A stretch of 64,000 nucleotides of DNA from Escherichia coli. GTDB taxonomy: Bacteria > Pseudomonadota > Gammaproteobacteria > Enterobacterales > Enterobacteriaceae. Location of the stretch: assembly GCF_045037415.1 (NCBI RefSeq), contig NZ_CP173438.1; one strand, written 5' to 3'. Under the pieces are notes generated by a model that worked only from the letters and a program-made list of their open reading frames with translations, searched no databases and was not told the DNA's origin. Below, piece by piece: positions 12,591 to 63,553 of this stretch. The translations under genes and the position numbers were made by a program. The stretch's first letter is position 1. Every line of letters begins with the position of its first letter.

Positions 12591-13595
12591 ATGCCGGGAG
12601 CACCCTCATTTATTGCCCTGGACTGGGGAACGTCATCGCTTCGGGCATGGCGTTTTGGCGAATCACCAAATCCACAAGAAAAACGTGAATTCCCCTGGGG
12701 GATCATGAAATTACCCTCCCAGGCAGCAACACGTGAGGACGCTTTCCACGATACGTTTTTACGTGTCTGCGGCGACTGGCTGGCACAAACCCCATGCCCG
12801 GTACTGGCTTGCGGCATGCTCGGCAGTGCGCAAGGGTGGCAACCAGCAGCTTATTTACCTTGCCCGGTCACTCTCGAGGGTCTGGCGAAGCAGTTGACGC
12901 CTGTTATCCACCAGCAGCAGACAATGCTGCACATCATTCCTGGCGTGATTAAAGAAGGTGAAATGCCCGAAGTGATGCGTGGCGAAGAGACACAAATCTT
13001 CGGTGCTATCTCGATGGAACCGTCCCTGCAAAATGCGATCCATCAGGGTATGCCAGTGCTGATAGGCTTACCCGGCACACATGCGAAATGGGCAGTAGTT
13101 GAAAACAACACCATTACCGATTTCCGAACCTTTATGACGGGCGAGTTATTTGATGTTTTATCCCGCCATTCGATTCTCGGTGCCACCATGCATCCTGGAG
13201 ATGAACTGCACTGGGATGCCTTCACCCACGGGCTGACAGCAGCACAAGAGCATCATCAGACCGGATTATTATCGACGCTGTTTTCGACCCGTTCGCGCCT
13301 GCTGACCAGTAATCTTACGTCGTCCTCGCAGGGGGATTACCTTTCCGGATTACTGATAGGCCATGAATTATGTGGTCTGGCATCCAGTTTGCTACGTGAT
13401 TTACCCGCCACAACACCGATCGCCTTAATCGGTAGCGCAAATCTGAACAGCCGCTATTCACAAGCATTCAGCCACGTTTTTCCCGACAGACAGATACACG
13501 CCATTCCTAATGCCACTGAACAGGGATTATGGCGAATCGCCCACGCTGCCGGGTTACTGTCCACCAACGCCAGGGAATGTACCCATGCCATTTAA
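12591..13595 (+). CDS. 2-dehydro-3-deoxygalactonokinase-family sugar-acid kinase (DgoK-like)
   Basis: 334 aa; shares DgoK motifs IALDWGTS, MRGEETQ, PGTHAKW, FRTFMTGEL, LSGLLIG. Confidence 0.8.
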   Translation: MPGAPSFIALDWGTSSLRAWRFGESPNPQEKREFPWGIMKLPSQAATREDAFHDTFLRVCGDWLAQTPCPVLACGMLGSAQGWQPAAYLPCPVTLEGLAKQLTPVIHQQQTMLHIIPGVIKEGEMPEVMRGEETQIFGAISMEPSLQNAIHQGMPVLIGLPGTHAKWAVVENNTITDFRTFMTGELFDVLSRHSILGATMHPGDELHWDAFTHGLTAAQEHHQTGLLSTLFSTRSRLLTSNLTSSSQGDYLSGLLIGHELCGLASSLLRDLPATTPIALIGSANLNSRYSQAFSHVFPDRQIHAIPNATEQGLWRIAHAAGLLSTNARECTHAI

Positions 13596-14214
13596 TACGC
13601 TTTTGCAAAAAACCGGGTTAGTCGCCATTTTACGCGGCGTGAAACCGGATGAGATTGTCGCCATCGGTGAAAAACTGTACGCCGCCGGATTCCGCCTGAT
13701 TGAGATTCCTATGAACTCGCCGGAGGCGTTGCAAAGTATCAGTTTACTGCGCGACGCCCTGCCTAAGGACTGCCTGGTCGGAGCCGGAACTGTGCTTTCG
13801 GTAGAGCAGGTGGTTGCGGTTAAAGAGGCTGGGGGCCAGATTATCGTGATGCCGCATTGCGATACTGCGGTGATCCGTCGCGCCCGTGCGCTGGGTATGT
13901 ATTGTGCGCCTGGCGTCGCCACGCCCACCGAAGCCTTTACTGCCATTGAACATGGTGCTAATGCCATCAAGCTGTTCCCGGCTGAACAAATTACGCCAGA
14001 AGTTACCAAAGCCTGGCGTGCGGTTATTCCACAATCCGTTCCGATGTTACCGGTTGGCGGTATCACACCGGAAACCATGGCGCGTTATCTGAGCCACGGC
14101 GCAAACGGCTTTGGCCTCGGTTCTGCGCTATATCACCCCGGCATGACGCCAGAGCAAGTCTATGAAAATGCAGTACTGTTTATGAACGCATGGAACAATT
14201 TAAATAGCAACTAA
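13585..14214 (+). CDS. 2-dehydro-3-deoxy-6-phosphogalactonate/KDPG-type aldolase (DgoA/Eda family)
   Basis: Start chosen at MPFNTLLQ, overlapping the kinase stop by 11 bp; motifs LVAILRG, GAGTVL, KLFPA, GGITPE typical of class I KDPG/KDPGal aldolases. Confidence 0.75.
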   Translation: MPFNTLLQKTGLVAILRGVKPDEIVAIGEKLYAAGFRLIEIPMNSPEALQSISLLRDALPKDCLVGAGTVLSVEQVVAVKEAGGQIIVMPHCDTAVIRRARALGMYCAPGVATPTEAFTAIEHGANAIKLFPAEQITPEVTKAWRAVIPQSVPMLPVGGITPETMARYLSHGANGFGLGSALYHPGMTPEQVYENAVLFMNAWNNLNSN

Positions 14215-14238
14215 CTGATAAATAAGGATATAAAAGCA

Positions 14239-15213
14239 ATGATAAAACATCTTACCTTACCGAAAAAAATGGCTGCAATGGTACTTCTTGCAGGCGCTGC
14301 CCTCAGCATTGCGCCTGTACAGGCTGCCTCCTGGCCAACCAAACAGATCGAGTTAGTCGTTCCCTACGCTGCCGGAGGCGGTACGGATCTGGTTGCCCGT
14401 GCCTTTGCTGATGCCGCCAAAAACCATTTACCCGTCAGCATCGGGGTTATCAATAAACCTGGCGGAGGCGGTGCTATCGGCCTGAGTGAAATCGCCGCTG
14501 CCCGCCCTGGCGGTTACAAAATTGGTTTAGGCACGGTTGAACTGACCACCCTTCCCAGCCTCGGAATGGTGCGTTTTAAAACCAGCGACTTTAAACCCAT
14601 TGCCCGTCTGAATGCGGATCCGGCTGCTATCACAGTCCGTGCCGATGCGCCGTGGAATAGCTATGAAGAATTTATGACTTACGCCAAAGCGAATCCCGGA
14701 AAAGTACGCATTGGTAACTCAGGCACCGGAGCTATCTGGCATCTGGCGGCAGCTGCACTGGAAGACAAAACGGGCGCAAAGTTTTCTCATGTCCCGTATG
14801 ACGGCGCAGCCCCTGCCATTACAGGCCTGTTAGGCGGGCACATTGAAGCGGTTTCCGTAAGCCCAGGAGAAGTTATCAACCATGTGAAAGGCGGCAAGCT
14901 GAAGACACTGGTAGTGATGGCGGATGAGCGAATGAAAACCATGCCTGACGTCCCGACGTTAAAAGAGAAAGGCGTTGATCTCTCCATCGGCACCTGGCGC
15001 GGCCTGATTGTGTCGCAAAAAACGCCGCAGGATGTGGTGGATGTTCTGGCAAAGGCAGCAAAAGAGACGGCTGAAGAGCCTGCATTCCAGGATGCACTAC
15101 AAAAGTTGAATCTCAACTATGCATGGCTTGACGCTGCCAGCTTCCAGACCCAAATCAGCGAACAGGAAAAGTACTTTGACGAGTTGCTGACTCGCCTGGG
15201 CCTGAAAAAATAA
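14239..15213 (+). CDS. Tripartite tricarboxylate transporter substrate-binding protein (TctC/Bug family)
   Basis: 324 aa with signal peptide (AAL-SIAPVQA) and Bug-family length and composition. Confidence 0.75.
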   Translation: MIKHLTLPKKMAAMVLLAGAALSIAPVQAASWPTKQIELVVPYAAGGGTDLVARAFADAAKNHLPVSIGVINKPGGGGAIGLSEIAAARPGGYKIGLGTVELTTLPSLGMVRFKTSDFKPIARLNADPAAITVRADAPWNSYEEFMTYAKANPGKVRIGNSGTGAIWHLAAAALEDKTGAKFSHVPYDGAAPAITGLLGGHIEAVSVSPGEVINHVKGGKLKTLVVMADERMKTMPDVPTLKEKGVDLSIGTWRGLIVSQKTPQDVVDVLAKAAKETAEEPAFQDALQKLNLNYAWLDAASFQTQISEQEKYFDELLTRLGLKK

Positions 15214-15226
15214 ACCTGAGGTACGG

Positions 15227-15736
15227 TTGATGAACACAAAACAGTCTGTTGCTCAACTCGCCGTACCGCACCGCAAGCGCCTTTCATCAACGATGGTGGT
15301 GGCGCTGTTACTTTGTGTGGTTGCTGGCGCGGTGATGATTAATGCCGCTGATTTTCCAGCAACTGCCATTGAAACGGATCCCGGTGCAAGTGCCTTCCCT
15401 ACCTTCTATGCCTGTGCCCTGATTGTGCTCGCTGTCTTGCTGGTGATACGCGATCTTTTGCAGGCAAAACCAGCCTCTTGCGCCAACGCACAGGAAAAAC
15501 CGGCATTCAGGAAAACGGCAACAGGAATTGCGGCAACCGCGTTTTATATTGTGGCGATGAGCTACTGCGGTTATCTCATTACTACTCCTGTTTTCCTCAT
15601 CGTCATTATGACGTTGATGGGCTACAGGCGATGGGTACTCACACCGGGTATTGCGCTGCTGTTAACGGCAATCCTCTGGTTGCTGTTTGTCGAAGCGTTA
15701 CAGGTGCCATTGCCTGTCGGCACATTTTTCGAATAA
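15227..15736 (+). CDS. Tripartite tricarboxylate transporter small membrane subunit (TctB-like)
   Basis: 169 aa hydrophobic 4-TM protein immediately between the TctC-like and TctA-like genes. Confidence 0.6.
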   Translation: MMNTKQSVAQLAVPHRKRLSSTMVVALLLCVVAGAVMINAADFPATAIETDPGASAFPTFYACALIVLAVLLVIRDLLQAKPASCANAQEKPAFRKTATGIAATAFYIVAMSYCGYLITTPVFLIVIMTLMGYRRWVLTPGIALLLTAILWLLFVEALQVPLPVGTFFE

Positions 15737-15748
15737 CAGGGGCCAGCA

Positions 15749-17239
15749 ATGTTTGAAAGTGAACTTTTAACTCAGGGTTTTTCGACATTACTCAATAATC
15801 CTCAGGCGCTGCTGTTTGCCACTTTTGGGGTGATGCTGGGTATTGTGATTGGCGCTCTGCCTGGTCTGACAGCGACCATGGGTGTGGCGATTTTGCTGCC
15901 TTTCACCTACGGCATGGAGCCTGTTTCTGGCTTGTTGATGATTTGCGGCGTCTTTTTTGGCGGCGTCTATGGCGGTTCTATCACCGCAATTTTGCTCAAA
16001 ATTCCCGGTACGCCTGCCGCCGCAGCCACCGCCATTGACGGATATGAGCTGACGAAGCAGGGAAAAGCAGGGCTGGCATTGAGTGCCGCCACGTTCTCTT
16101 CCTTTAGTGGCGGAACGCTCAGCATTATCGTGCTGATGTTTCTCTCTCCGGTACTTGCCAGTTGGGCGCTGAAATTTAGTGCCTCGGAGTCCTTCGCCCT
16201 GGCAACCTTCGGACTGAGCATTATTGCCAGTATTTCCGGTGAGTCGCTGATTAAGGGGCTGATTGCCGGGGTTGGCGGATTGCTGATCGCAACGATAGGC
16301 CTTGATCCAATGGGCGGTTTTCCACGGTTTACAGGTGGATTTGTGGAGCTGATGAATGTGCCATTTATCCCGGTGATGATTGGTTTATTTGCTGCTTCAG
16401 AAGCATTCCGCTCTATGGAGCAAAACCAGCAAATTCGTCAGGGGGCGAAGGTGGCTATCGGCAGTCTGTTACTGCCCTGGCAAACACTACGCCGCATCGC
16501 ATTAACCATTTTGCGCTCATCAGGATTAGGGGTTTTTATCGGCATGATCCCCGGTGCGGGGGCGGATATTGCAGCTTTTGTTGCCTATAACGAAACTCGT
16601 CGTTTCAGTAAGACACCAGAAAACTTTGGTAAGGGTGAAATTAAAGCTGTGGCCTCCTGTGAGGCAGGCGCGAATGGCTGCACCGGTGGCGCATTGTTAC
16701 CTATGCTGACGCTGGGGATCCCTGGCGATGCGGTAACCGCCATCATGCTGGGCGCGTTAACGTTACAGGGAATGCAACCAGGCCCGCTGATGTTTACCGA
16801 CCACGGCGATATGGTTTATACACTGTTTGTCGGCATGATCTTCTGTTACTTCATGCTACTAGTTCTTGGACTGCTCTCTTTGAAAGTCATCGGTAATGTG
16901 GTGAAAATTCCCGGCAATATTCTCACACCGATGATCCTCGCACTTTGTGTGGTCGGGACTTATGCGTTGAACAATAGCCTTTTTGATGTTGGCATTATGC
17001 TGATTGCAGGCGTGGTGGGCTATTTCATGCAGAAAGGAGGATATCCGGCATCACCCGTAGTGCTGGCATTGATTATGGGGCCAATGGCGGAAAGTAATTT
17101 TCGCCGTGCGCTGTCGCTTTCTGGTGGGTCACTCGACTTTCTGTATACCCGACCGATCACTCTGGCATTGCTGACTCTGGCAGCCTTTACGCTACTGACG
17201 CCAATAATCCGCAAAATAATGCGTTTACGGCGTCAATAA
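15749..17239 (+). CDS. Tripartite tricarboxylate transporter large permease (TctA family)
   Basis: 496 aa polytopic membrane protein with TctA-like glycine-rich repeats. Confidence 0.8.
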   Translation: MFESELLTQGFSTLLNNPQALLFATFGVMLGIVIGALPGLTATMGVAILLPFTYGMEPVSGLLMICGVFFGGVYGGSITAILLKIPGTPAAAATAIDGYELTKQGKAGLALSAATFSSFSGGTLSIIVLMFLSPVLASWALKFSASESFALATFGLSIIASISGESLIKGLIAGVGGLLIATIGLDPMGGFPRFTGGFVELMNVPFIPVMIGLFAASEAFRSMEQNQQIRQGAKVAIGSLLLPWQTLRRIALTILRSSGLGVFIGMIPGAGADIAAFVAYNETRRFSKTPENFGKGEIKAVASCEAGANGCTGGALLPMLTLGIPGDAVTAIMLGALTLQGMQPGPLMFTDHGDMVYTLFVGMIFCYFMLLVLGLLSLKVIGNVVKIPGNILTPMILALCVVGTYALNNSLFDVGIMLIAGVVGYFMQKGGYPASPVVLALIMGPMAESNFRRALSLSGGSLDFLYTRPITLALLTLAAFTLLTPIIRKIMRLRRQ

Positions 17240-17246
17240 CTGATAT

Positions 17247-17276
17247 CGCTCCCCGAAGTTGGGGAGCGTTTTTTTA
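17247..17276 (+). terminator. Rho-independent terminator after the TctA-like gene (overlaps the udp stop)
   Basis: cgctcccc-gaagtt-ggggagcg stem followed by 8 T. Confidence 0.55.
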
Positions 17277-18038
17277 TTTCAGCAGACGACGCGCCGCTTC
17301 CACCACGATTTTCACCGCATGGCTTTCGGTTTGTTTCATCGTCTCAGCATTCGGGATCTCTTGCTGGGTGCGGTTAACGATAACCCCCGCTACCATACCG
17401 GCACGCAGGCCCTGACTTGCACACATGGTCAGCAGGGTTGCAGATTCCATTTCATAGTTCATTACGCCCATCGCCTGCCACTCTTCCATAGAACCTTTAA
17501 AGTGACGAACTACGCGACCAGAGTAAGTATCGTAACGTTCCTGACCTGGGTAGAAGGTATCAGAAGAAGCTGTCACGCCAACGTGAGTCGTCGCGCCAAT
17601 GGATTTCGCAGCTTCAACCAGCGCAGTCGTACATTCGAAATCAGCGACAGCCGGGAATTCCAGCGGTGCGAAGTGCAGGCTCGCGCCATCCAGACGAACA
17701 GACGCCGTGGTAACCAGGACATCACCCACATTAATATGCGGCTGAATAGCGCCCGTTGTACCGATACGCAGGAAGGTGCGAATGCCCAGCTGTGCCAGCT
17801 CTTCAACAGCAATAGAGGTAGACGGGCCGCCGATACCGGTAGAGCAGACGATAACAGGTTTACCATCCAGCTCTGCACGCCAGGTGGTGAATTCGCGGTG
17901 AGATGCCAGCTTAACCGGCTTATCCATCAGCGCGGCGATCTTTTCCACACGATCCGGGTCGCCAGGGACGATGGCAAGCGTAGCCCCTTGTAAATCGTTT
18001 TTAGTGAGGCCGAGATGAAAAACATCAGACTTGGACAT
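17274..18038 (-). CDS. udp: Uridine phosphorylase
   Basis: Matches Udp from [16 protein letters not shown] (253 aa). Confidence 0.95.
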
Positions 18039-18129
18039 ATACAACTCCTCTGTGAATCGGTTTAGTCAGAAGAAGCAAAAAGACACTTTACCGAAGGGTT
18101 TAACATTTTTTCGTGATACTCATCACCAT

Positions 18130-18180
18130 GACGAAAATGTGTTGCATAAATTTACCCATCAAAAGTGATGCAAATCACAT
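18130..18180 (-). promoter_or_regulatory. udp promoter region with CRP-like half-site pairs (CRP/CytR-regulated promoter)
   Basis: gtgatgcaaatcac (TGA-N6-TCA core) and a second tgtg..ttgca element upstream of udp; udp is a known CRP/CytR target. Confidence 0.4.
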
Positions 18181-18299
18181 AAATCACTCTTCATTCTGCA
18201 GGACTGCATAAAAGATGAGCCGATTCAGGCAATGTGATTTGTTGCATGCTGACTATAGTTAACATTGCGCAACATTTTTATAAGGGTACGGAGAATACC

Positions 18300-19109
18300 A
18301 TGGCAACAACACAACAATCTGGATTTGCACCTGCTGCATCGCCTCTCGCTTCGACCATCGTTCAGACTCCGGACGACGCGATTGTGGCGGGCTTCACCTC
18401 TATCCCTTCACAAGGGGATAACATGCCTGCTTACCATGCCAGACCAAAGCAAAGCGATGGCCCACTGCCAGTGGTCATTGTAGTGCAGGAAATTTTTGGC
18501 GTGCATGAACATATCCGCGACATTTGTCGCCGTCTGGCGCTGGAGGGGTATCTGGCTATCGCACCTGAACTTTACTTCCGCGAAGGCGATCCGAATGATT
18601 TTGCCGATATCCCCACGTTGCTTGGCGGTCTGGTAGCAAAAGTGCCTGACTCGCAGGTGCTGGCCGATCTCGATCATGTCGCCAGTTGGGCTTCCCGCAA
18701 CGGCGGCGATGTTCATCGTTTAATGATCACCGGATTCTGCTGGGGTGGACGTATCACCTGGCTGTATGCCGCGCATAATCCACAGCTAAAAGCCGCAGTG
18801 GCGTGGTACGGCAAACTGACGGGCGATAAGTCGCTGAATTCACCGAAACAACCTGTTGATATCGCAACCGATCTTAACGCGCCGGTTCTCGGCTTATATG
18901 GCGGCCAGGATAACAGCATTCCGCAAGAGAGTGTGGAAACGATGCGCCAGGCGCTGCGGGCAGCAAACGCGAAAGCAGAGATTATCGTGTACCCGGATGC
19001 AGAGCATGCGTTCAACGCCGATTATCGTCCGAGCTATCATGCCGAGTCTGCGAAAGACGGCTGGCAGCGAATGTTGGAATGGTTTACACAGTATGGTGTT
19101 AAAAAGTAA
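18300..19109 (+). CDS. ysgA: Dienelactone hydrolase-family protein (YsgA/DlhH)
   Basis: Start at MATTQQSGF with RBS ggag; alpha/beta hydrolase with the DLH-family GFCWGG nucleophile motif. Confidence 0.85.
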   Translation: MATTQQSGFAPAASPLASTIVQTPDDAIVAGFTSIPSQGDNMPAYHARPKQSDGPLPVVIVVQEIFGVHEHIRDICRRLALEGYLAIAPELYFREGDPNDFADIPTLLGGLVAKVPDSQVLADLDHVASWASRNGGDVHRLMITGFCWGGRITWLYAAHNPQLKAAVAWYGKLTGDKSLNSPKQPVDIATDLNAPVLGLYGGQDNSIPQESVETMRQALRAANAKAEIIVYPDAEHAFNADYRPSYHAESAKDGWQRMLEWFTQYGVKK

Positions 19110-19175
19110 CGCCATAGTCGCTAAATCTGATGATTAAGCTCACACAATTTCAACGATTTTTTTAATCTCAAAACC

Positions 19176-19272
19176 ATACAGCATCAAAAAATTTGTTGCT
19201 GTATGCCACTCTTTGACTCCCTTCACATTCGTCATCACACCACCTGCTGAATGCAAAAATTTCGTTGCTGTG
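19176..19272. promoter_or_regulatory. Two related ~20-bp motifs upstream of the isochorismatase-family gene (candidate regulator binding sites)
   Basis: atacagcatcaaaaaatttgttgctgtat (perfect 8-bp inverted arms ATACAGCA/TGCTGTAT) and the related tgcaaaaatttcgttgctgtg about 50 bp downstream. Confidence 0.3.
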
Positions 19273-19365
19273 CGGCAAACTTTTTTCCTGTTTTGTGCCG
19301 CTTTTCTCCTGAATACTCGTTCTCAGAACAACTGGATCGTTTAAACATCAGACAGGAGATTTACC

Positions 19366-20034
19366 ATGACGCAATCCATTTTTCAGGCTCAACCCTTTGA
19401 ATTACCTTTTGATCCGCGCACAACTGCACTGGTCATGATCGACATGCAGCGTGACTTTGTCGAAGCCGGGGGCTTCGGTGAGGCACTGGGCAATGATGTT
19501 TCACGGGTACGCACGGCTATCGCACCATGTACAGAGGTGCTGGCAGCCGCACGTCAAAAAGGAATTATGGTTATTCATACTCGTGAAGGCCATCGTGCAG
19601 ACTTAAGCGACTGCCCGCCAGCCAAACTGACGCGCGGCGGAAAAACCTTTATTGGTGAACCAGGACCGATGGGACGCATTCTGGTCAGAGGTGAAGCAGG
19701 TCATGACATCATTCCTGAACTGTACCCGGTGGCAGGCGAACCGGTGATTGATAAGCCTGGCAAAGGCGCGTTTTATCAAACCGACTTACATCTGATTTTG
19801 CAAAACCACGGTATCAAGACGCTGATAGTTTGTGGTGTAACAACCGAAGTTTGCGTAACCACCACCGTGCGCGAAGCAAATGATCGTGGCTATGAATGCA
19901 TTATCCCGGAAGATTGTGTCGGCTCCTATTTCCCGGAATTCCAGAAATACGCCCTCGAGATGATCAAAGCACAAGGTGCCATTTTCGGTTGGGTTACTGA
20001 TTCCAAAGCCATTATTGCAGGTCTGGAAGGCTAA
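19366..20034 (+). CDS. Isochorismatase-family cysteine hydrolase (RutB / N-carbamoylsarcosine amidase / biuret hydrolase-like amidase)
   Basis: 222 aa; family triad context D (LVMIDMQRDF), K (DKPGKGAF), C (LIVCGVTTEVCV); RBS aggag upstream. Confidence 0.75.
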   Translation: MTQSIFQAQPFELPFDPRTTALVMIDMQRDFVEAGGFGEALGNDVSRVRTAIAPCTEVLAAARQKGIMVIHTREGHRADLSDCPPAKLTRGGKTFIGEPGPMGRILVRGEAGHDIIPELYPVAGEPVIDKPGKGAFYQTDLHLILQNHGIKTLIVCGVTTEVCVTTTVREANDRGYECIIPEDCVGSYFPEFQKYALEMIKAQGAIFGWVTDSKAIIAGLEG

Positions 20035-20039
20035 CGCCG

Positions 20040-20900
20040 ATGGTACAGGTTACGCTTTGCGCATCGTCGTTGGGATATCTTTTCCCGCAGGATGAAACGC
20101 AAGATTTACGTCTACATAGCGCTTTTAAACATGCGGTAAATCTGTATTCAGACGCGGGAACATTCATCACTCTGTTGTGTGCGCAAACGTATCTGAATCT
20201 CCCTGATGCTGCCAGAGTCTGGCTACCTGAATGTTGGGACTGGCGAAGAGAGATTGCCCATTCAGATCCCATTCAGTTAACCCCAGGCTTGCTGCGGACA
20301 CCTCGATTTTGTGTGGCGCTCGATAACGCAACGCTCTGGCAGTCGCCATTTGTGGGGGGAATGCTGACACTTGAGGCATTCCCTTTGGTTTTCCAGCACT
20401 ACCCAACGATGGCATCGCAACGGCTTTTATTTTGTCTGGAGCATAACGTTCAAAGCACATTGCACCTGCCGGATAGTCTCACGCACCAGGGATTAGCGAT
20501 TATGGAGCATCCAGATGCGCTGGAACGCCAGGTGCCACAACTGATCGGCTTTGGTAAAGGCTTAACGCCCGATGGAGATGACTATTTGTTGGGCTATCTG
20601 GCAGCGCTCTGGTTATGGCAACTCCCTGCACCACTTGCCGATCATCAATACCGGTTGCAGCAGGCAATTGATCAACATGCGCACAACACCACGGATATCA
20701 GTCGTCATTATCTGGAGCGTGCGCTTCAGGGACATTTTTCAGAACCGATTTGCCAGTTACTCGCACAACTGGTTGGGAGCGCATCGGCAATGACAATCGC
20801 ATCCTGTGCAGAACAGGTCATGCAATTTGGCGCAACGTCAGGAGTAGATTGCCTTGCAGGAATGCTGCATGGCTTTCGAACCCTGAACACCATGAATTGA
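20040..20900 (+). CDS. DUF2877-like protein (YahE/YlbF-like; putative carbamoyltransferase accessory subunit)
   Basis: 286 aa ORF starting 6 bp after the amidase stop. Assignment rests mainly on length and its position directly upstream of the FdrA-like gene, as in the yahEFG and fdrA-ylbEF clusters. Confidence 0.45.
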   Translation: MVQVTLCASSLGYLFPQDETQDLRLHSAFKHAVNLYSDAGTFITLLCAQTYLNLPDAARVWLPECWDWRREIAHSDPIQLTPGLLRTPRFCVALDNATLWQSPFVGGMLTLEAFPLVFQHYPTMASQRLLFCLEHNVQSTLHLPDSLTHQGLAIMEHPDALERQVPQLIGFGKGLTPDGDDYLLGYLAALWLWQLPAPLADHQYRLQQAIDQHAHNTTDISRHYLERALQGHFSEPICQLLAQLVGSASAMTIASCAEQVMQFGATSGVDCLAGMLHGFRTLNTMN

Positions 20901-20994
20901 TTTCAACCTTTTCTCCCGTAGCCCGTTTATGGGGCTACACGGGGATGCTTTGCCCGAATTTTGCTATCGGGCGGAATGAAACAGGCGTAACAGC

Positions 20995-22554
20995 ATGAAA
21001 GTTAAATATAAAGTTTTCAGTAATCTTTATCAGGACTCAGTTTCTCTGATGCAGATTTCCGCGCAAATCAGCAAGTTGCCCGGTATTCAACAGGCCTCGG
21101 TCGTCATGGGAACGCCCAATAATCTCGAACAATTGCGCGATGCGGGTCTGGGTAACGAAATCAACGCCAGTCCCAATGATTTAGTGATTGCAGTCATGGG
21201 TGAAGAAGATATTTGCAATGAAGCACTGATACTGGCCCAGCAACGTCTGACCAGCAAACCCGATGATGAAACGGATAGTGGCATTAAAACACCGGAAAAG
21301 GTCAGCCTGGAAATGGCACTGGAAGCCGAACCCGAAGCCAACCTGGCACTCATTTCTGTACCGGGAGACTACGCCGCCGCCGAAGCAATTAAAGCGTTAA
21401 ACCTCGGAATGAACGTGATGATGTTCAGCGATAACGTCAGTATCGTGCAGGAAAAATCCATCAAAACGCTTGCCCGAGAACGTCAGCGCATCGTAATGGG
21501 ACCTGACTGTGGAACCGCCATTGTTAACGGCATTCCGTTAGGCTTCGCTAATGTGGTGAAACGCGGAGCAATTGGTGTTATTGGCGCGTCAGGCACCGGG
21601 CTACAGGAAGTGACTTGCCGAATCGACCAGCTCGGAGCGGGTATTTCTCAGGCGTTGGGAACAGGCGGACATGATCTCAGTAAAGAGATTGGTGGAATAT
21701 CGATGCTCTTCGCTTTAGATGCGCTGGCGCAAGACGATGAAACTCGCGTAATTGTGCTGATTTCAAAACCGCCTTCACCGATCGTTGCCCGGACTATTCT
21801 GGAGCGCGCCGAGGCTTGTGGAAAACCCGTGGTGGTGAATTTCCTCGGGGCGAATCCGCATGATCTGGCACGTCCCAATATCACTGCCGCCACCACACTT
21901 GCCAGCGCCGCCGACATCGCTGTGGCGTTACTGAATGCTCAGCCACTTCCGGCTGTCGAAACCGATGTACCCTGCGACGATCTCACAATGTTACAAAACG
22001 CCTGCCAGCGCCTGCCAGCCCATCGCCAGGCGATACGCGGTGTTTTCGCCGGAGGAACCTTCTGCTACGAAGCGCAACTTATCTGCCAACAAAAGGGATT
22101 CAGCGCAGCTTCCAATACGCCAGTTGCGGGTAATCGTGCTCTGGCAAATATCTGGCAAAGCGAAGATCACACGTTGATCGATATGGGCGACGATGATTTC
22201 ACCCGTGGCAAACCGCATCCAATGATCGACCCGACTCTGCGCAATCAACGTCTGCTCAACGAACTCAACGACTCACACACTGCCGTCGTGTTATTCGACC
22301 TGGTACTTGGTTATGGCGCTTCCACGACGCCTGCCAGCGAATTACTGGACCAACTTTCACACATCGACATGAATAACGCTCCGTTGCTGATTGCGCACGT
22401 TTGCGGAACGGAAGCTGATCCGCAAATACGCAGTCAGCAGATAAGCGCACTACAAAATGCAGGGGTCATCATCGCCAGCAGCAATGCACAGGCGGCGCTA
22501 TGGGCCAGCACCGTTGCACAGACTCAGTTGCAGAAAAAGGGGCTAAACGCATGA
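20995..22554 (+). CDS. FdrA-family protein (succinyl-CoA-synthetase-like fold)
   Basis: 519 aa; motifs QDSVSLM, NLALISVPGDYAA, NVMMFSDNV, MGPDCGT, GVIGASGTG, KPHPMIDPTLRNQ shared with E. coli FdrA/YahF. Confidence 0.7.
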   Translation: MKVKYKVFSNLYQDSVSLMQISAQISKLPGIQQASVVMGTPNNLEQLRDAGLGNEINASPNDLVIAVMGEEDICNEALILAQQRLTSKPDDETDSGIKTPEKVSLEMALEAEPEANLALISVPGDYAAAEAIKALNLGMNVMMFSDNVSIVQEKSIKTLARERQRIVMGPDCGTAIVNGIPLGFANVVKRGAIGVIGASGTGLQEVTCRIDQLGAGISQALGTGGHDLSKEIGGISMLFALDALAQDDETRVIVLISKPPSPIVARTILERAEACGKPVVVNFLGANPHDLARPNITAATTLASAADIAVALLNAQPLPAVETDVPCDDLTMLQNACQRLPAHRQAIRGVFAGGTFCYEAQLICQQKGFSAASNTPVAGNRALANIWQSEDHTLIDMGDDDFTRGKPHPMIDPTLRNQRLLNELNDSHTAVVLFDLVLGYGASTTPASELLDQLSHIDMNNAPLLIAHVCGTEADPQIRSQQISALQNAGVIIASSNAQAALWASTVAQTQLQKKGLNA

Positions 22555-23975
22555 ATACCTTATTTAATCAGCCTTTGAAGGTTGTGAACGCGGGACTACA
22601 CAGTTTTGCTGACAATATTCAACATGCCGGGGGAAGCGCAATTGCACTCAACTGGCAGCCACCAGCACAAGGCGATATTGACGCTGGATTGGATCTGGCA
22701 TCGTTGCTACGTCATCCCCTGGTAGAAAATGCCAACCAAATCGCCATGGCACGTTATCTCGAAGCACAGCCCGTGCTGGTGGATGTCATGCTTGCTAAAG
22801 AGGCCATTCCAGCAATGGCTGAACAAAAACGTATTTTGCACTCTGGCCCGCCGATTGCCTGGGAAGAGATGTGTGGTCCGGTAAAAGGGGCGATTATTGG
22901 TGCCATGCTGTACGAAGGTTGGGCCACCAGCCAGCAAGACGCTGAAAACCAGATAAACGCAGGCGAAATCGACCTTGCCCCTTGTCATCATTATCACGCG
23001 GTTGGCCCAATGGCAGGCATCATCAGCCCGTCGATGCCGTTATGGGTGGTAGAAAACAAAACCAACGGCCACCGTACTTTTAGCAATTTCAATGAAGGTC
23101 TGGGTAAGGTTCTCCGTTTTGGCGCCAATAACGATGAAGTTCTCAATCGTCTGGCCTGGATGCGCGATGAACTGACGCCGGCAATGAAAGCAGCAATCGC
23201 ACAACACGGCGAGCTGGAACTCAAGCCATTAATGGCGCAGGCGCTGCATATGGGGGATGAAGTTCATAACCGCAATGCTGCCGCTACCGGTTTGCTGATT
23301 AAGCGCCTGCTCCCGGCATTGCTGGCCTGCTCTCTTCCACAGGAACATATCCAGCGCGTCGTGGCATTTATCACCGGTAACGATCACTTCTTCCTCAATC
23401 TGTCGATGGCCGCCTGTAAAGCAATGATGGATGCCGCCGCCAATGTACCGTTCAGTTCAATGGTTACGGTGATGGCGCGTAACGGGGTGAATTTTGGTAT
23501 TCGGATTTCCGGTACTGGCGATCGCTGGTTCCAGGCTCCTGCCAATGCCGTTGAAGGTCTGTTCTTCCCCGGATTTGGCGTTGACGACGCTGCTGCTGAC
23601 CTGGGTGATAGCGCAATTACTGAAACCGCAGGTGTGGGTGGCTTCGCGATGGCGTCGTCTCCGGCGATCGTCAAATTTGTGGGAGGCACCCCTGCCGATG
23701 CCACCAATAACAGCCGTCGGATGCAAGCCATCACCCTCGGCGGTAACCCCGCATTTACACTTCCAGCCCTCAATTTTGCCCCCACCGCAGCAGGGATTGA
23801 TGCGCGTAAAGTGACCGATCGCGGCATTTTACCGGTCATCAATACGGGTATCGCCCACAAACAAGCGGGGGTCGGGCAAATTGGTGCCGGGATCACCACT
23901 GCGCCGATGGCCTGTTTTGTCGCCGCTGTACGTGCACTGGCGGAGATCGTCGCAAAGGAGAACCATCATGGTTAA
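22551..23975 (+). CDS. DUF1116-family protein (YlbE/YahG-like)
   Basis: Start ATG overlaps the FdrA-like stop as ATGA (translational coupling); ~474 aa, the size of YlbE/YahG. Confidence 0.6.
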   Translation: MNTLFNQPLKVVNAGLHSFADNIQHAGGSAIALNWQPPAQGDIDAGLDLASLLRHPLVENANQIAMARYLEAQPVLVDVMLAKEAIPAMAEQKRILHSGPPIAWEEMCGPVKGAIIGAMLYEGWATSQQDAENQINAGEIDLAPCHHYHAVGPMAGIISPSMPLWVVENKTNGHRTFSNFNEGLGKVLRFGANNDEVLNRLAWMRDELTPAMKAAIAQHGELELKPLMAQALHMGDEVHNRNAAATGLLIKRLLPALLACSLPQEHIQRVVAFITGNDHFFLNLSMAACKAMMDAAANVPFSSMVTVMARNGVNFGIRISGTGDRWFQAPANAVEGLFFPGFGVDDAAADLGDSAITETAGVGGFAMASSPAIVKFVGGTPADATNNSRRMQAITLGGNPAFTLPALNFAPTAAGIDARKVTDRGILPVINTGIAHKQAGVGQIGAGITTAPMACFVAAVRALAEIVAKENHHG

Positions 23976-24924
23976 GCCACTGGCTGTCGTCGCGGTTGGC
24001 GGCAATGCGCTCATTCAGGACGAGCAACGCAATAGTATTCCCGATCAATATGTTGCAGTGATGGAAAGCGTGCAGCATATCGTTGATATGGTTGAAGCCG
24101 GATGGGACCTGGTGCTAACCCACGGTAATGGCCCGCAGGTGGGCTTTATTCTGCGCCGCTCTGAACTCGCCAGTAACGAAGTTTCTCCGGTTCCACTTGA
24201 TTACGCCGTGGGTGATACACAAGGTGCAATTGGCTACATGTTCCAGAAAGCGCTGCATAACGAACTCGCTCGCCGTGGCATAAACAAACCGGTAATTGCC
24301 CTGGTGACACAAACGCGAGTCAGCCCACATGACGATGCTTTCGCCAGCCCCAGTAAACCGATTGGCGCGTTTCTCGATGAAGCAACGGCCCAACAACGCC
24401 AACAACAACTCGGCTGGACGCTGATGGAGGACGCCGGGCGTGGTTGGCGGCGTACAGTTCCCTCTCCTGCACCACTGGAAATTATTGAGCACGACACCAT
24501 CGCTCACCTGGTGCGCCAGGGATATCTGGTTATTGCCTGCGGCGGCGGCGGTATTCCGGTGGTGCGAGACGGGCAACAACTGAAAGGTGTAGAAGCCGTG
24601 ATCGATAAAGATCTGGCCTCCGCGCTGCTCGCCAGTCAGTTAGGCGCAGATCTGCTGGTGATCCCCACCGGTGTAGAAAAAGTGGCGATTAACTTTGGTA
24701 CACCACAACAACAGTGGCTCGACGCTATCAGCGTTGCCGAAGCGCAAACGCTGTTGCGGGAAGGTCAGTTTGGTGTCGGCAGTATGCAACCCAAAGTGGA
24801 AGCCATTGTTGATTTCATCAATGCCAGCCAGCAACAAGGCAAACAGGCCAGCGGCCTGATTACTTCACCGCAAACCATAAAAGCAGCCCTGGCGCATCAG
24901 AGCGGTACATGGATAACCCTTTAA
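23968..24924 (+). CDS. Carbamate kinase
   Basis: Start at MVKPLAVVAVGGNAL with RBS aaggag; carbamate-kinase motifs THGNGPQVG, CGGGGIPV, VIDKD, GSMQPK; overlaps the upstream stop by 8 bp. Confidence 0.8.
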   Translation: MVKPLAVVAVGGNALIQDEQRNSIPDQYVAVMESVQHIVDMVEAGWDLVLTHGNGPQVGFILRRSELASNEVSPVPLDYAVGDTQGAIGYMFQKALHNELARRGINKPVIALVTQTRVSPHDDAFASPSKPIGAFLDEATAQQRQQQLGWTLMEDAGRGWRRTVPSPAPLEIIEHDTIAHLVRQGYLVIACGGGGIPVVRDGQQLKGVEAVIDKDLASALLASQLGADLLVIPTGVEKVAINFGTPQQQWLDAISVAEAQTLLREGQFGVGSMQPKVEAIVDFINASQQQGKQASGLITSPQTIKAALAHQSGTWITL

Positions 24925-24940
24925 TTCTCTGGAGAACACA

Positions 24941-25330
24941 ATGACTACAACGCTTTTAGCCGTTAACGGAACGCTGATGCGCGGCCTGGAACTCAACCCA
25001 AATATGCAAAAAGCGGGCGGTATTTTTGTCCGTGAAGACCGAACTGACGCCCATTACCGGTTGTGGAGTATTAATGATCGCCATCCGGGAATGATTCGCG
25101 TGAATGAAGGAGGAACACACGTCGACGTAGAAATTTGGCAATTACCGCTGGCCAGTTTTGCCGCTCTGTTAATGAGCGAACCCGCTGGGCTGGCAATTGG
25201 CAAAATCAAACTTGCCGATGGTAGCGAAGTGCTGGGCGTACTGGCAGAAAACTGGCTGACCGAAGGCCAACGGGAAATTACAGAACTGGGTAGCTGGCGT
25301 AAATACACCGGGCATTTTCATACTGTGTAA
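24941..25330 (+). CDS. Gamma-glutamylcyclotransferase-like (AIG2/GGCT fold) small protein
   Basis: 129 aa, N-terminal LLAVNGTLMRG resembles the GGCT-fold YGSL-type motif; function inferred only weakly. Confidence 0.4.
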   Translation: MTTTLLAVNGTLMRGLELNPNMQKAGGIFVREDRTDAHYRLWSINDRHPGMIRVNEGGTHVDVEIWQLPLASFAALLMSEPAGLAIGKIKLADGSEVLGVLAENWLTEGQREITELGSWRKYTGHFHTV

Positions 25331-25355
25331 CGCGCATTTATAAAGGGAACATACT

Positions 25356-26579
25356 ATGCGTAAAAAAGAAGAGAATCTGAATACGGCATCAGGATTGCGT
25401 ATTGCCATGATTTTGCTGGGTATTGCCGTCACACCTGTGCTGTTGTCATCCTCAAGCCTCGGCAATCAACTTTCCAGCGGCAGTTTAATTAGCGTCGTAT
25501 TGTTAGGCGGCGTCATTCTGACCTTACTTTCAGCCATCACCATTAGCGTGGGAGAAAAAGCCCGCCTGCCAACGTATGGCATTGTGAAATATTCGTTTGG
25601 CGAAAAAGGGGCCATCGCCATTAACATTTTGATGGCGATAAGTCTGTTCGGCTGGATTGCCGTTACCGCCAATATGTTTGGTCATTCGGTACATGACTTA
25701 CTGGCTCAACATGGACTGGAAGTTCCACTGGCACTGTTAGTGGCGGCTGGCTGTGTCATTTTTGTCGCCTCTACGGCATTTGGCTTTGCCGTTCTGGGAA
25801 AAATTGCCCAGGTTGCCGTGCCGGTTATCGCGCTGGTGCTGTGTTACATCCTCTATGTGGCAACCCATACCGAAGTGGCAGTACCAGCGGCGATTGTGGA
25901 GATGAATACAGGTGTCGCCGTTTCCACCGTTGTTGGCACCATTATTGTGCTGGTTGCCACACTGCCTGATTTCGGTAGTTTTGTGCATAACCGCAAACAT
26001 GCGCTGATTGCCGCAGGCGTGACGTTTCTGGTTGCCTACCCTCTGCTCTACTGGGCGGGTGCAACGCCGAGCGCCATTAGTGGTCAGGGATCTTTACTGG
26101 GTGCGATGGCGGTATTCGGTGCAGTTCTGCCTGCGGCGCTGTTGTTGATTTTCGCCTGCGTCACCGGTAACGCGGGCAATATGTTCCAGGGCACGCTGGT
26201 GGTTTCCACACTGCTTACCCGCTTTCCCAAATGGCAGATTACCGTGGCGCTGGGTATCCTTTCCGCCATCGTAGGCAGTATGGATATTATGGCGTGGTTT
26301 ATTCCGTTTCTGCTGTTCCTGGGTATCGCCACGCCACCCGTTGCCGGAATTTATATCGCTGACTTTTTCCTTTATCGCCGTAATGGCTATCAAGAGTCAG
26401 TGTTAGCCCAGGAGTCACAGATTAAAGTGCTGACATTCGCAGCATGGATCATAGGCGCAGCGGTTGGCTTTATGACCGTAAAAGGCTTATTCACCCTGAC
26501 GACGATCCCTTCGGTAGACTCGATTCTGGTGGCATGTATCGCGTATGCGATTCTCAGTCGGGCAAGTCAACACCGCTAA
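25356..26579 (+). CDS. NCS1-family nucleobase/ureide permease (cytosine permease CodB-like)
   Basis: 407 aa, ~12 TM segments, size and composition like CodB/allantoin-type permeases. Confidence 0.65.
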   Translation: MRKKEENLNTASGLRIAMILLGIAVTPVLLSSSSLGNQLSSGSLISVVLLGGVILTLLSAITISVGEKARLPTYGIVKYSFGEKGAIAINILMAISLFGWIAVTANMFGHSVHDLLAQHGLEVPLALLVAAGCVIFVASTAFGFAVLGKIAQVAVPVIALVLCYILYVATHTEVAVPAAIVEMNTGVAVSTVVGTIIVLVATLPDFGSFVHNRKHALIAAGVTFLVAYPLLYWAGATPSAISGQGSLLGAMAVFGAVLPAALLLIFACVTGNAGNMFQGTLVVSTLLTRFPKWQITVALGILSAIVGSMDIMAWFIPFLLFLGIATPPVAGIYIADFFLYRRNGYQESVLAQESQIKVLTFAAWIIGAAVGFMTVKGLFTLTTIPSVDSILVACIAYAILSRASQHR

Positions 26580-26656
26580 TTCCTGGGTATACTCAGGCAA
26601 TGATTACGGCTGAATCTGGAGAGATTCAGCCACTTTACCACTGACCAGGGAGCCTT

Positions 26657-27562
26657 ATGTTCATCTCAGACGAAACGCTTCGTGTTATTCATCTGGTCGC
26701 CAGACACCAGAGCATTACCACCGCAGCCGAGCAGTTAAATAAAGTCCCTTCCGCCATCAGTTACACCATCAAGAAAGCGGAAGAGAGCCTGGGCGTTGAA
26801 CTGTTCATTCGTAAGGGACGCTATATTGAATTATCGCCAGCGGGAAGTTACTTCATCGAACATAGCAAAACTATTCTTGGCGACCTGGAAGCATTAAAGC
26901 GCAACACAGTGCTGATTCACGATGGTATTGAGCGTGAACTGACAATTGCGGTAAACAATATTATTCCTGGTGATTTGCTGGTGGCATTTATTCGAGATTT
27001 TGAACGGCAATTCACATCAACAACACTGACGGTAGATCTTGAGGTATACAACGGCTGCTGGGATGCGCTGTACAGTAAGCGTGCTGATCTGGTCTACGGT
27101 GCTCCTCATGCAGTACCAAGCAGTGAAGGCATCATTAGCGAACCGGTCGGACAAATGGAATGGGATTTTGTCGTCAGCCCACTCCACCCACTGGCAGCGA
27201 AGCGGCATCCATTAGAAAACAGTGAATTGCGTCATTATCCAGCGGTTTGTATCCGCGATACCTCCGTTAACTTCCCCCCGATGCAAGCCTGGTTGTTGGA
27301 AGGACAAAAACCCATTTTTGTTCCTGACTTCGCTACGGCAATCGCCTTAATAGAACAAAACGTCGGTATTGGTTATATTCCACATCATCTGGCATTACCG
27401 TTATTGAACAGCGGTAAATTGCTTAAAAAGCCAATGCGCGAACATAAACACGCCACCAAGTTATTTCTTGCCGCTCGTTCCGATGGTATGGGCAAAGCCT
27501 GTCAGTGGTGCATAGAATATTTAAGAAACCAGCAATTAATGACACGATTTGTATTTAATTGA
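26657..27562 (+). CDS. LysR-family transcriptional regulator
   Basis: 301 aa; N-terminal HTH (TAAEQLNKVPSAISYTIKKAEESLGVELF) plus LysR substrate-binding domain. Confidence 0.8.
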   Translation: MFISDETLRVIHLVARHQSITTAAEQLNKVPSAISYTIKKAEESLGVELFIRKGRYIELSPAGSYFIEHSKTILGDLEALKRNTVLIHDGIERELTIAVNNIIPGDLLVAFIRDFERQFTSTTLTVDLEVYNGCWDALYSKRADLVYGAPHAVPSSEGIISEPVGQMEWDFVVSPLHPLAAKRHPLENSELRHYPAVCIRDTSVNFPPMQAWLLEGQKPIFVPDFATAIALIEQNVGIGYIPHHLALPLLNSGKLLKKPMREHKHATKLFLAARSDGMGKACQWCIEYLRNQQLMTRFVFN

Positions 27563-32850: not shown

Positions 32851-33091
32851 CCAATGCATCAGTATGAAATGTGAAGCTAGTCACAAGAAAGATCATAGGT
32901 TGATATGTTTTTCATTAAAAAACATAGAGATATCAAGTAATTTTTAATATGTGATGGAGAGGCAGATAGAAAAAATGGCGGAAATGACGAAATTTATTTC
33001 ATGAGAAGGGAATAAAGAAGATTTTCTTAAACAGGGTATGAACTGATATCTGGAATGGTTTACGCAGTATGCTGGGAAGACGTCGCTGTAA

Positions 33092-62356: not shown

Positions 62357-63553
62357 ATGCTAAAAGTGTTATTGCTCTTTGTGTTGCTGATTGCGGGGAT
62401 CGTGGTTGGCCCGATGATTGCCGGCCATCAGGGTTACGTGCTGATCCAGACCGACAACTACAATATTGAAACTAGCGTCACGGGCCTCGCGATTATTTTG
62501 ATTCTGGCGATGGTAGTGCTGTTTGCCATTGAGTGGCTACTGCGGCGAATCTTCCGCACAGGCGCGCACACCCGTGGGTGGTTTGTCGGACGTAAGCGTC
62601 GCCGTGCACGTAAGCAGACCGAACAGGCGCTGCTGAAACTGGCGGAAGGCGATTATCAGCAAGTTGAAAAGCTGATGGCGAAAAATGCCGATCACGCTGA
62701 ACAACCGGTGGTGAACTATCTACTGGCAGCCGAAGCCGCGCAACAACGTGGTGATGAAGCACGCGCCAACCAACATCTGGAACGCGCAGCGGAGCTGGCC
62801 GGCAATGACACCATTCCGGTAGAAATCACCCGTGTACGTCTGCAACTGGCCCGTAATGAAAACCATGCAGCACGTCACGGCGTTGATAAGCTGCTGGAAG
62901 TTACGCCACGCCATCCGGAAGTATTACGTCTGGCGGAACAGGCGTATATCCGCACAGGGGCATGGAGTTCGCTGCTGGATATCATCCCATCAATGGCGAA
63001 AGCCCATGTTGGTGATGAAGAACATCGTGCAATGCTGGAACAACAGGCATGGATTGGCCTGATGGATCAGGCGCGTGCCGATAACGGTAGCGAAGGTTTG
63101 CGTAACTGGTGGAAAAACCAAAGCCGGAAAACGCGTCATCAGGTGGCCTTGCAGGTGGCAATGGCGGAACATCTTATTGAGTGTGACGATCATGATACTG
63201 CCCAGCAAATTATCATCGACGGCCTGAAACGCCAGTATGACGATCGCCTGCTGCTGCCGATCCCGCGTCTGAAAACCAATAATCCGGAACAGCTGGAAAA
63301 AGTGCTGCGCCAACAGATCAAAAACGTGGGCGATCGCCCGCTGTTGTGGAGCACACTGGGTCAGTCGCTGATGAAACACGGAGAATGGCAGGAAGCATCG
63401 CTCGCCTTCCGCGCAGCGCTGAAACAACGTCCGGACGCCTACGATTACGCATGGCTTGCCGACGCGCTGGACAGACTGCACAAGCCGGAAGAAGCCGCAG
63501 CGATGCGTCGCGACGGTTTGATGCTAACGTTGCAAAACAACCCACCGCAGTAA
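62357..63553 (+). CDS. hemY: HemY-family TPR membrane protein
   Basis: 398 aa, 2 N-terminal TM helices + TPR-like repeats, matches HemY. Confidence 0.9.
   Translation: MLKVLLLFVLLIAGIVVGPMIAGHQGYVLIQTDNYNIETSVTGLAIILILAMVVLFAIEWLLRRIFRTGAHTRGWFVGRKRRRARKQTEQALLKLAEGDYQQVEKLMAKNADHAEQPVVNYLLAAEAAQQRGDEARANQHLERAAELAGNDTIPVEITRVRLQLARNENHAARHGVDKLLEVTPRHPEVLRLAEQAYIRTGAWSSLLDIIPSMAKAHVGDEEHRAMLEQQAWIGLMDQARADNGSEGLRNWWKNQSRKTRHQVALQVAMAEHLIECDDHDTAQQIIIDGLKRQYDDRLLLPIPRLKTNNPEQLEKVLRQQIKNVGDRPLLWSTLGQSLMKHGEWQEASLAFRAALKQRPDAYDYAWLADALDRLHKPEEAAAMRRDGLMLTLQNNPPQ

Follow-up and report, generated by a model that had tools for sequence, protein, structure and literature searches.

The stretch of DNA analyzed in this study, referred to as the window, covers 64,000 nucleotides of an Escherichia coli chromosome, in which an accessory island starts directly after the stop codon of ysgA. 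The first eight genes of the island all run in one direction (+), and they are separated from ysgA by an island-specific promoter region of 256 nt, which holds the two elements named E1 and E2 here (Table 1). The resulting operon (19366-27562) mixes a BiuH-like hydrolase, AllF/G/H-like carbamoyltransferase subunits (FdrA, DUF1116, and DUF2877), a carbamate kinase, and an NCS1 permease. It also includes an allophanate-hydrolase-related protein of 129 amino acids that resembles the C-terminal domain of allophanate hydrolase, and it ends with a gene for a LysR-type transcriptional regulator (LTTR). The gene content suggests an uncharacterized pathway for a biuret- or allophanate-like ureide, with ATP as a possible yield via carbamoyl phosphate. 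The gene set of the operon was kept from Enterobacterales to Mycobacterium. A literature search found no regulatory study of the island; one paper lists "GR 29 metE..ysgA" with hypothetical functions and is silent on regulation. Additionally, a second accessory block was observed at 13510-17239, between rmuC and udp. Judged by its counterpart in strain SK1144, this block includes an IclR regulator, 2-dehydro-3-deoxygalactonokinase and aldolase paralogs, and a tripartite tricarboxylate transporter.

The promoter region, together with the eight-gene cluster, was present in 1499 of the 5426 complete E. coli genomes (~28%), and 1494 of the copies of the region were at least 99% identical. Its carriers include BL21(DE3), ST131, and LF82. 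Among the same 5426 genomes, those that lack the island had no counterpart of the region.

Table 1. Coordinates of genes and regulatory features in the window; start-site positions are predicted.
Feature	Position	Strand	Description
udp	17274-18044	-	
ysgA	18234-19109	+	followed directly by the island
Promoter region	19110-19365		256 nt, between ysgA and the eight-gene cluster
Upstream CRP-like box	19129-19144		GATGATTAAGCTCACA; two mismatches to TGTGA-N6-TCACA (8/10)
A/T block	19148-19168		conserved CAACGATTTTTTTAAT; centre ~32 bp upstream of E1
E1, putative distal operator	19175-19205		31-bp palindrome, centre 19190; ~-135 from predicted start
CRP-like site	19212-19227		TTTGACTCCCTTCACA; 9/10 consensus positions; centre 29.5 bp from E1 and 39.5 bp from E2
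E2, putative proximal operator	19248-19272		TGC-N9-GTT plus GCTGT; centre 19259; ~-65
Degenerate motif copy	19275-19292		GCAAACTTTTTTCCTGTT; ~25 bp past E2, ~-40; conserved AAA..TT..CTGT columns
Predicted sigma-70 -10 hexamer	19312-19317	+	AATACT; from conservation; TATACT, TATAAT, or TAAAAT in orthologs, equally far from the proximal site
Predicted transcription start (~19325)	19324-19326	+	conserved CAG; from the alignment and the -10 spacing
Cysteine hydrolase, first operon gene	19366-20034	+	closest family BiuH (biuret amidohydrolase) at 276 bits, cut-off 370
DUF2877, FdrA, DUF1116, carbamate kinase, allophanate-hydrolase-related protein, NCS1 (cytosine-permease-like) transporter	20040-26579	+	
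LysR-type regulator (LTTR), last operon gene	26657-27562	+	proposed binder; nearest families PunR and AllS

A preliminary description of this DNA had reported two related elements with inverted arms upstream of the first gene. The sequences it listed were found where it had placed them, with ATACAGCA (19176-19183) and TGCTGTAT (19197-19204) 13 nt apart and tgcaaaaatttcgttgctgtg at 19252-19272. The inverted arms, however, were confirmed for E1 only, where the palindrome is larger than had been claimed. E1 reads CATACAGCATCAAA-AAA-TTTGTTGCTGTATG, with 14-nt arms that include one mismatch, and it carries two CAGCAwC half-sites around ATC-N9-GTT. E2 is a poor palindrome with one strong half-site (GTTGCTG), and it is instead a direct repeat of the right half of E1, where 17 of 21 bases are identical in the best register (CATCAAAAAATTTGTTGCTGT aligned with ATGCAAAAATTTCGTTGCTGT). 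In this register, the centres of E1 and E2 are 69 bp apart rather than the ~75 bp first proposed. The elements lie 94-190 nt before the ATG of the first gene (19366).

Neither the E1 palindrome nor the E1/E2 repeat is expected by chance. Arms of at least 14 nt with at most one mismatch were absent from all 500 dinucleotide shuffles of the intergenic region, in which the longest arm was 13 nt, and the 17/21 direct repeat was attained in three of 500 such shuffles. The whole window contains six distinct palindromes of E1 quality, compared with 0.37 expected in shuffles, and the other five are G+C-rich. A BLAST search placed E1 in island carriers only, with a single copy per genome. Because of this distribution, E1 is not a dispersed (REP-like) repeat, and the end of a mobile element was ruled out on the same grounds.

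For the comparative analysis, one genome per species was scanned with the cysteine hydrolase, and 80 loci were obtained. The hydrolase was very well conserved, and it was followed by the same gene set in most of the 80 loci. The cluster and a linked LTTR ortholog were kept across Enterobacterales, Vibrionales, Burkholderiales, Neisseriales, and others. The LTTR ortholog was found at the operon end in Enterobacterales, Burkholderiaceae, and Xanthomonadales, upstream and co-directional in Vibrionaceae, Shewanella, and Pasteurellaceae, and divergent in Neisseriales.

Unseeded, randomly started motif discovery in 58 orthologous upstream regions returned one motif, sCAGCAwCrAAAwwTTTTGm, with the core ATC-N9-GAT, which was recovered in front of the orthologous operon in gamma- and beta-proteobacteria alike. 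When a matrix that excluded E. coli was applied to the 128,000 positions of the window, the top three matches were E1 (20.9 and 19.9 bits in its two orientations) and E2 (20.2 bits), followed by an intragenic match of 14.6 bits. The matches outside E1 and E2, at 62489, 45976, and 47111, were all within coding regions at no more than 14.6 bits and were dismissed. A matrix built from 23 non-Enterobacterales sites only gave an identical top three, which argues against a mere lack of divergence time as the source of the similarity.

Across all loci, the 400 nt that precede the hydrolase gene contained matches of at least 13 bits at 63 times the density seen elsewhere. Of the 47 cluster-bearing loci with a linked LTTR, 44 carried the motif, as did 2 of the 23 that lack such a regulator (Fisher p = 1e-12). 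Both figures are uncorrected for phylogeny and partly circular, because the matrix was trained on one site per contributing locus of the LTTR-positive group. The loci compared include Caballeronia/Burkholderia both with and without the regulator. Exceptions were observed in both directions: L010 and L019 have the motif and no LTTR inside the 20-kb locus, and three loci have an LTTR yet only a weak motif. The spacer upstream of the LTTR gene itself (26580-26656) had no motif match of at least 9 bits, and an autoregulatory site before this gene was rejected for that reason.

Additional copies of the motif were observed in some lineages. In Neisseriales (L059, L060, L061, and L071), the cluster is split in two operons, the other of which has a second strong copy of 20-23 bits in front of it, ~1160 nt upstream of the hydrolase start (around 8834 in L060). 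This copy lies just past the divergent LTTR gene and before two AzgA-like purine permease genes, which are followed by fdrA and DUF1116, an arrangement that hints at a nucleobase-related substrate. Similarly, four loci of the Rahnella group (L020, L024, L025, and L026) have an extra copy of 20.5-20.9 bits, located ~8.9-9.3 kb downstream of the hydrolase start. In L024, this copy (around 18913) follows the LTTR gene by ~830 nt. It also lies ~410 nt before a gene for a LysE/RhtB-like transporter, which may be an additional member of the regulon.

Variant clusters were found in L055, L056, and L057 (Kosakonia/Phytobacter and an uncultured betaproteobacterium), where the LTTRs carry VPTA[LV]SYTVHK. 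Operators in Kosakonia and Phytobacter follow a CCTCA...TGAGG pattern, and the site in the betaproteobacterium, GGCTCA, is weaker at 8 bits. The plasmid version of E2 described below likewise reads CCTCA. These clusters possibly represent a specificity variant.

A second copy of the eight-gene cluster was identified on ~118 E. coli plasmids. Between the plasmid and chromosomal clusters, coding sequences share 92-97% nucleotide identity and internal spacers 99-100%, and the plasmid promoter (L002 11979-12235, NZ_CP160109.1) is only 65% identical to 19110-19365 of the window. The LTTR sites of the plasmid promoter are degenerate, with no match of at least 8 bits and a 1-nt insertion in E2. Among the orthologs, a recognition helix with VPSTISYTL (A33T, I38L) is unique to the plasmid LTTR. 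As judged from these sequences, the pattern could reflect either a promoter replacement or a co-variation of regulator and operator.

An alignment of 14 Enterobacterales upstream regions was highly diverged except for discrete conserved blocks. In order, these were TCACA (19140-19144), an A/T block at ~19158, E1, TTTGA-N6-TCACA, E2, AAA..TT..CTGT (19277-19291), the -10 hexamer, and CAG. With the motif matrix, the A/T block reaches 9-14.5 bits in some orthologs and stays under 8 bits in E. coli; in Serratia and Rahnella, it resembles a weak third copy, 32 bp from the distal site. In nearly all lineages from E. coli to Burkholderiales, 51-53 nt separate the centre of the proximal site from the beginning of the -10 hexamer downstream, and for E2 the distance is 53 nt. 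Counted from a start at ~19325, E2 would be centred at -65, the degenerate motif copy at -40, the CRP-like box at -105, and E1 at -135. The degenerate copy overlaps a weak -35 region and resembles an activation-binding site.

LTTR-activated promoters typically have a recognition-binding site near -65 and an activation-binding site near -35/-40. Given the predicted start, the same layout was found here, with a strong site at about -65 and a weaker copy at about -40 over a poor -35. The start site is one that we infer, because a simple consensus promoter scan called no promoter on the + strand at the predicted -10; an uncalled promoter with a poor -35 is expected if the promoter depends on an activator. 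In terms of the T-N11-A core, the ortholog consensus is ATC-N9-GAT/GC, with the final A in 43% of the sites. The E. coli sites depart from the strict rule (E1 has ATC-N9-GTT and E2 has TGC-N9-GTT), and the dyad symmetry of E1 is clear. No -10-like hexamer was found 53 nt downstream of E1, in a stretch that is length-variable among orthologs, and a second promoter served by E1 was therefore rejected. The promoter is also bracketed by a 12-nt inverted repeat of 92% complementarity (TCTGATGATTAA at 19126-19137 and TTAAACATCAGA at 19341-19352). This repeat may be a chance match, and its downstream arm is missing from the plasmid copy.

The conserved blocks include two CRP-like boxes, and the TCACA of the upstream box was invariant in the 14 Enterobacterales orthologs. 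In the window, only four sequences match TGTGA-N6-TCACA with at most one mismatch, and 12 of 100 shuffles reached as many; the match at 19212-19227 alone is not statistically remarkable within the window. A perfect TGTGA-N6-TCACA (32870-32885) belongs to the second half of the island, with ptsG-like and hxlB genes nearby, and a one-mismatch sequence (18164-18179) lies between udp and ysgA, upstream of udp. A CRP-like box occurs in most Enterobacterales and Vibrionaceae-type loci, at 29.5-30.5, 39.5-40.5, or 50.5-51.5 nt before the proximal site. Among these loci, the box was missing in L004, L006, L010, L012, L016, and L021-L023, and the beta-proteobacterial loci showed no comparable conserved and phased box. 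The taxonomic range of cAMP-CRP control fits this distribution.

The spacing between the centres of the distal and proximal sites fell into classes of 69-71 bp (14 loci), 79-81 bp (five loci), and 100-103 bp (seven loci). Since the classes differ by approximately whole helical turns, the helix faces are conserved and the absolute distances are not. The phasing supports some face-dependent interaction, without identifying which one.

In searches against known regulator families, the LTTR scored 288 bits for PunR (cut-off 345) and 215 bits for AllS. With an identity of 34% to the PunR of K-12, it is a PunR paralog and not a PunR ortholog. Its recognition helix reads KVPSAISYTIKK, with KVPSAISYT(I/V)KK in almost all orthologs, and the corresponding helices are RVPSAVSYTVRQ in PunR and KTTATISYRIK in AllS. 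AllS, the second-best family match, is an LTTR that activates the allF operon of K-12 (fdrA-ylbE-ylbF-ybcF), where it binds, along with the global regulator ArcA, at -203 to -144 relative to the start codon (PMC12535856). The two systems are alike in their carbamoyltransferase subunits of the FdrA/DUF1116/DUF2877 type and their carbamate kinase, and they would also share activation by an LTTR that binds far upstream together with a global regulator. They differ in the recognition helix and in the co-regulator, which is ArcA for allF and would be CRP here. The allD-allF intergenic region of K-12 had no match with the cluster matrix, and an AllS-type site common with the paralogous allF operon was rejected on this basis.

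On the comparative evidence, E1 and E2 are probably operators of the LTTR encoded last in the same operon. The earlier suggestion of a site pair for a regulator, possibly the LysR protein of the cluster, thereby gained support from the motif shared among orthologs, its co-occurrence with the LTTR, the -65 position, and the PunR-like core. Against these operators stands the plasmid cluster, which is maintained despite its degenerate sites. The most serious alternative is possible cross-binding by PunR, an LTTR present in all E. coli, such that the sites would mainly be bound by another regulator of similar specificity, most plausibly this housekeeping protein, and the cluster LTTR would act elsewhere or be redundant. 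The PunR operator, TsttwTCAAwAwwwTTGaaGGCA, which footprinting had predicted, was verified by ChIP-exo, fluorescence polarization, and EMSA (PMC8376909). Compared with its validated core, TCAAwAwwwTTGa, E1 reads TCAAAAAATTTGT (core TCAA-N5-TTGT), with one departure at the last position, and E2 reads GCAAAAATTTCGT, a partial match. The recognition helices of the two regulators are nearly identical, and the PunR operator accounts for the two best matches of the cluster matrix in the 10-kb punR locus of K-12. The motif is thus of the type read by the PunR-like subfamily. However, the flanks are CAGCA and TGCTG here versus Tsttw and aGGCA in the PunR operator, the elements lie upstream of the hydrolase operon and not between divergent punR and punC, the cluster matrix gives the PunR operator 13 bits versus 20-21 bits for E1 and E2, and the motif follows the linked LTTR among the cluster-bearing loci. 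The distinct flanks and the much higher scores of E1 and E2 argue for the cluster's own regulator, and binding mainly by PunR is considered unlikely.

Three further explanations were considered. E1 lies 66 nt past the stop codon of ysgA, and its RNA folds into a 13-pair hairpin, with a folding z-score of -3.4 for the 141-nt region, as would be fitting for a terminator or stabilizer at the 3' end of the ysgA transcript to which the likeness of E2 is incidental. However, the stem is A/U-rich, no U-tract follows it, and no terminator was called. In the 14 orthologs, 59.7% of the cells pair, versus a shuffle expectation of 59.1% (222 of 500 shuffles were as high), which indicates that the sequence is conserved and not the pairing. 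Furthermore, E1 was kept where the upstream gene differs from ysgA, and the same motif occurs in the non-palindromic E2. An intrinsic terminator or a structured ysgA 3' RNA was rejected for want of a U-run, covariation, and a terminator call, and the hairpin reading as a whole is very improbable. A known RNA family or riboswitch in the leader was likewise rejected, as no family of Rfam 15 came near its gathering score (the best were 19.8 bits versus 49 and 17.1 versus 45). The nitrogen-responsive regulator offered in the preliminary description, either NtrC with sigma-54 or NAC, would suit an operon that, from its gene content, plausibly frees ammonia from a ureido compound, and the arms are loosely GCA/TGC. 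Pattern scans of 19110-19365 nevertheless lent it no consensus for sigma-54, NtrC, or NAC: TGGCAC-N5-TTGCW was absent with up to three mismatches, ATA-N9-TAT was absent, the sole NtrC-like match has four mismatches, and the promoter has a conserved -10 of the sigma-70 type. The scans used generally known consensus sequences for sigma-54, NtrC, NAC, FNR, ArcA, and PurR, none of which had a convincing match, and global nitrogen control through these elements is extremely improbable. Lastly, the likeness of E1 and E2 might be the functionless remnant of a local duplication or a chance product of A/T-rich intergenic DNA, given that the spacer is a low-complexity A/T run and that the plasmid copy tolerates degenerate versions. 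This explanation is hardly credible: the shuffling tests oppose chance, and different classes of Proteobacteria keep the elements at fixed distances from the -10.

With E1 and E2 read as operators of the cluster LTTR, a mechanism can be proposed. E2, ~65 bp upstream of the predicted start, would serve as the recognition-binding site, and the degenerate copy at ~-40 would serve as the activation-binding site. Because the latter overlaps the poor -35, the weak sigma-70 promoter (AATACT) would depend on the regulator, which would activate rather than repress. E1, which is fully symmetric and probably of higher affinity, would be a distal site in helical register with E2. Since 69 bp is too long for one LTTR tetramer on straight DNA, a second regulator molecule is proposed at E1. 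CRP bound at the box between E1 and E2 would probably bend the DNA, such that the E1-bound regulator could cooperate with the promoter-proximal complex, and this input would add catabolite control. The role given to E1 is a conjecture. A full higher-order complex, in which two operators of a PunR-like LTTR spaced whole turns apart (70, 80, or 101 bp) flank a CRP site at a constant offset of 29.5 bp from the distal one and cooperate through its bend under the control of substrate and cAMP, is put forward tentatively and seems more doubtful than probable.

The proposed promoter resembles several known systems in part. Classical LTTR promoters with sites at -65 and -35/-40 include those of BenM/CatM, CbnR, and AtzR. 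The operon analyzed here shares with them a proximal site at ~-65, a weaker copy ~25 bp further on, a linked regulator gene, and a -10 of the sigma-70 type. In contrast to these promoters, it has an extra and more symmetric putative distal operator ~70 bp further upstream and an intervening CRP-like box. Combinations of an LTTR with CRP are found in E. coli at tdcABC (TdcA, CRP, and IHF) and dsdXA (DsdC and CRP), where a pathway-specific LTTR site and a CRP site likewise lie upstream of a catabolic operon. The difference is that the putative CRP box here is at ~-105, between two LTTR sites. Among single regulators, PunR (YdhB) of K-12 is similar in its A/T-centred interrupted palindrome with the core TCAA-N5-TTGA, in its helix with VPSA[IV]SYT, and, as proposed here too, in activating from upstream of the promoter (PMC8376909). 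In contrast to the two phased sites and the copy near -40 observed here, a single 23-bp operator was reported for PunR (PMC8376909). Moreover, punR is divergent from its target, which is a purine transporter, whereas the present regulator gene is at the 3' end of a catabolic operon.

An operator pair of the PunR type before this operon was previously undescribed, and the LTTR switch itself is of an ordinary kind. The analysis provides a first regulatory model for a widespread and uncharacterized accessory operon, and it links an unstudied PunR-like LysR regulator to a DNA motif. The model predicts a start at ~19325 and an input from CRP, and the promoter offers a ready reporter for finding the inducer and hence the pathway's substrate. 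Phase-dependent cooperation is likewise open to a direct test through the whole-turn spacing conserved between the operators. If the ureide reading of the gene content is true, the operon would be a third paralogous system in E. coli besides all and yah. If the higher-order complex is also true, a substrate signal and cAMP would jointly control a possibly ATP-yielding, biuret- or allophanate-like ureide pathway in E. coli B, ST131, and other lineages.
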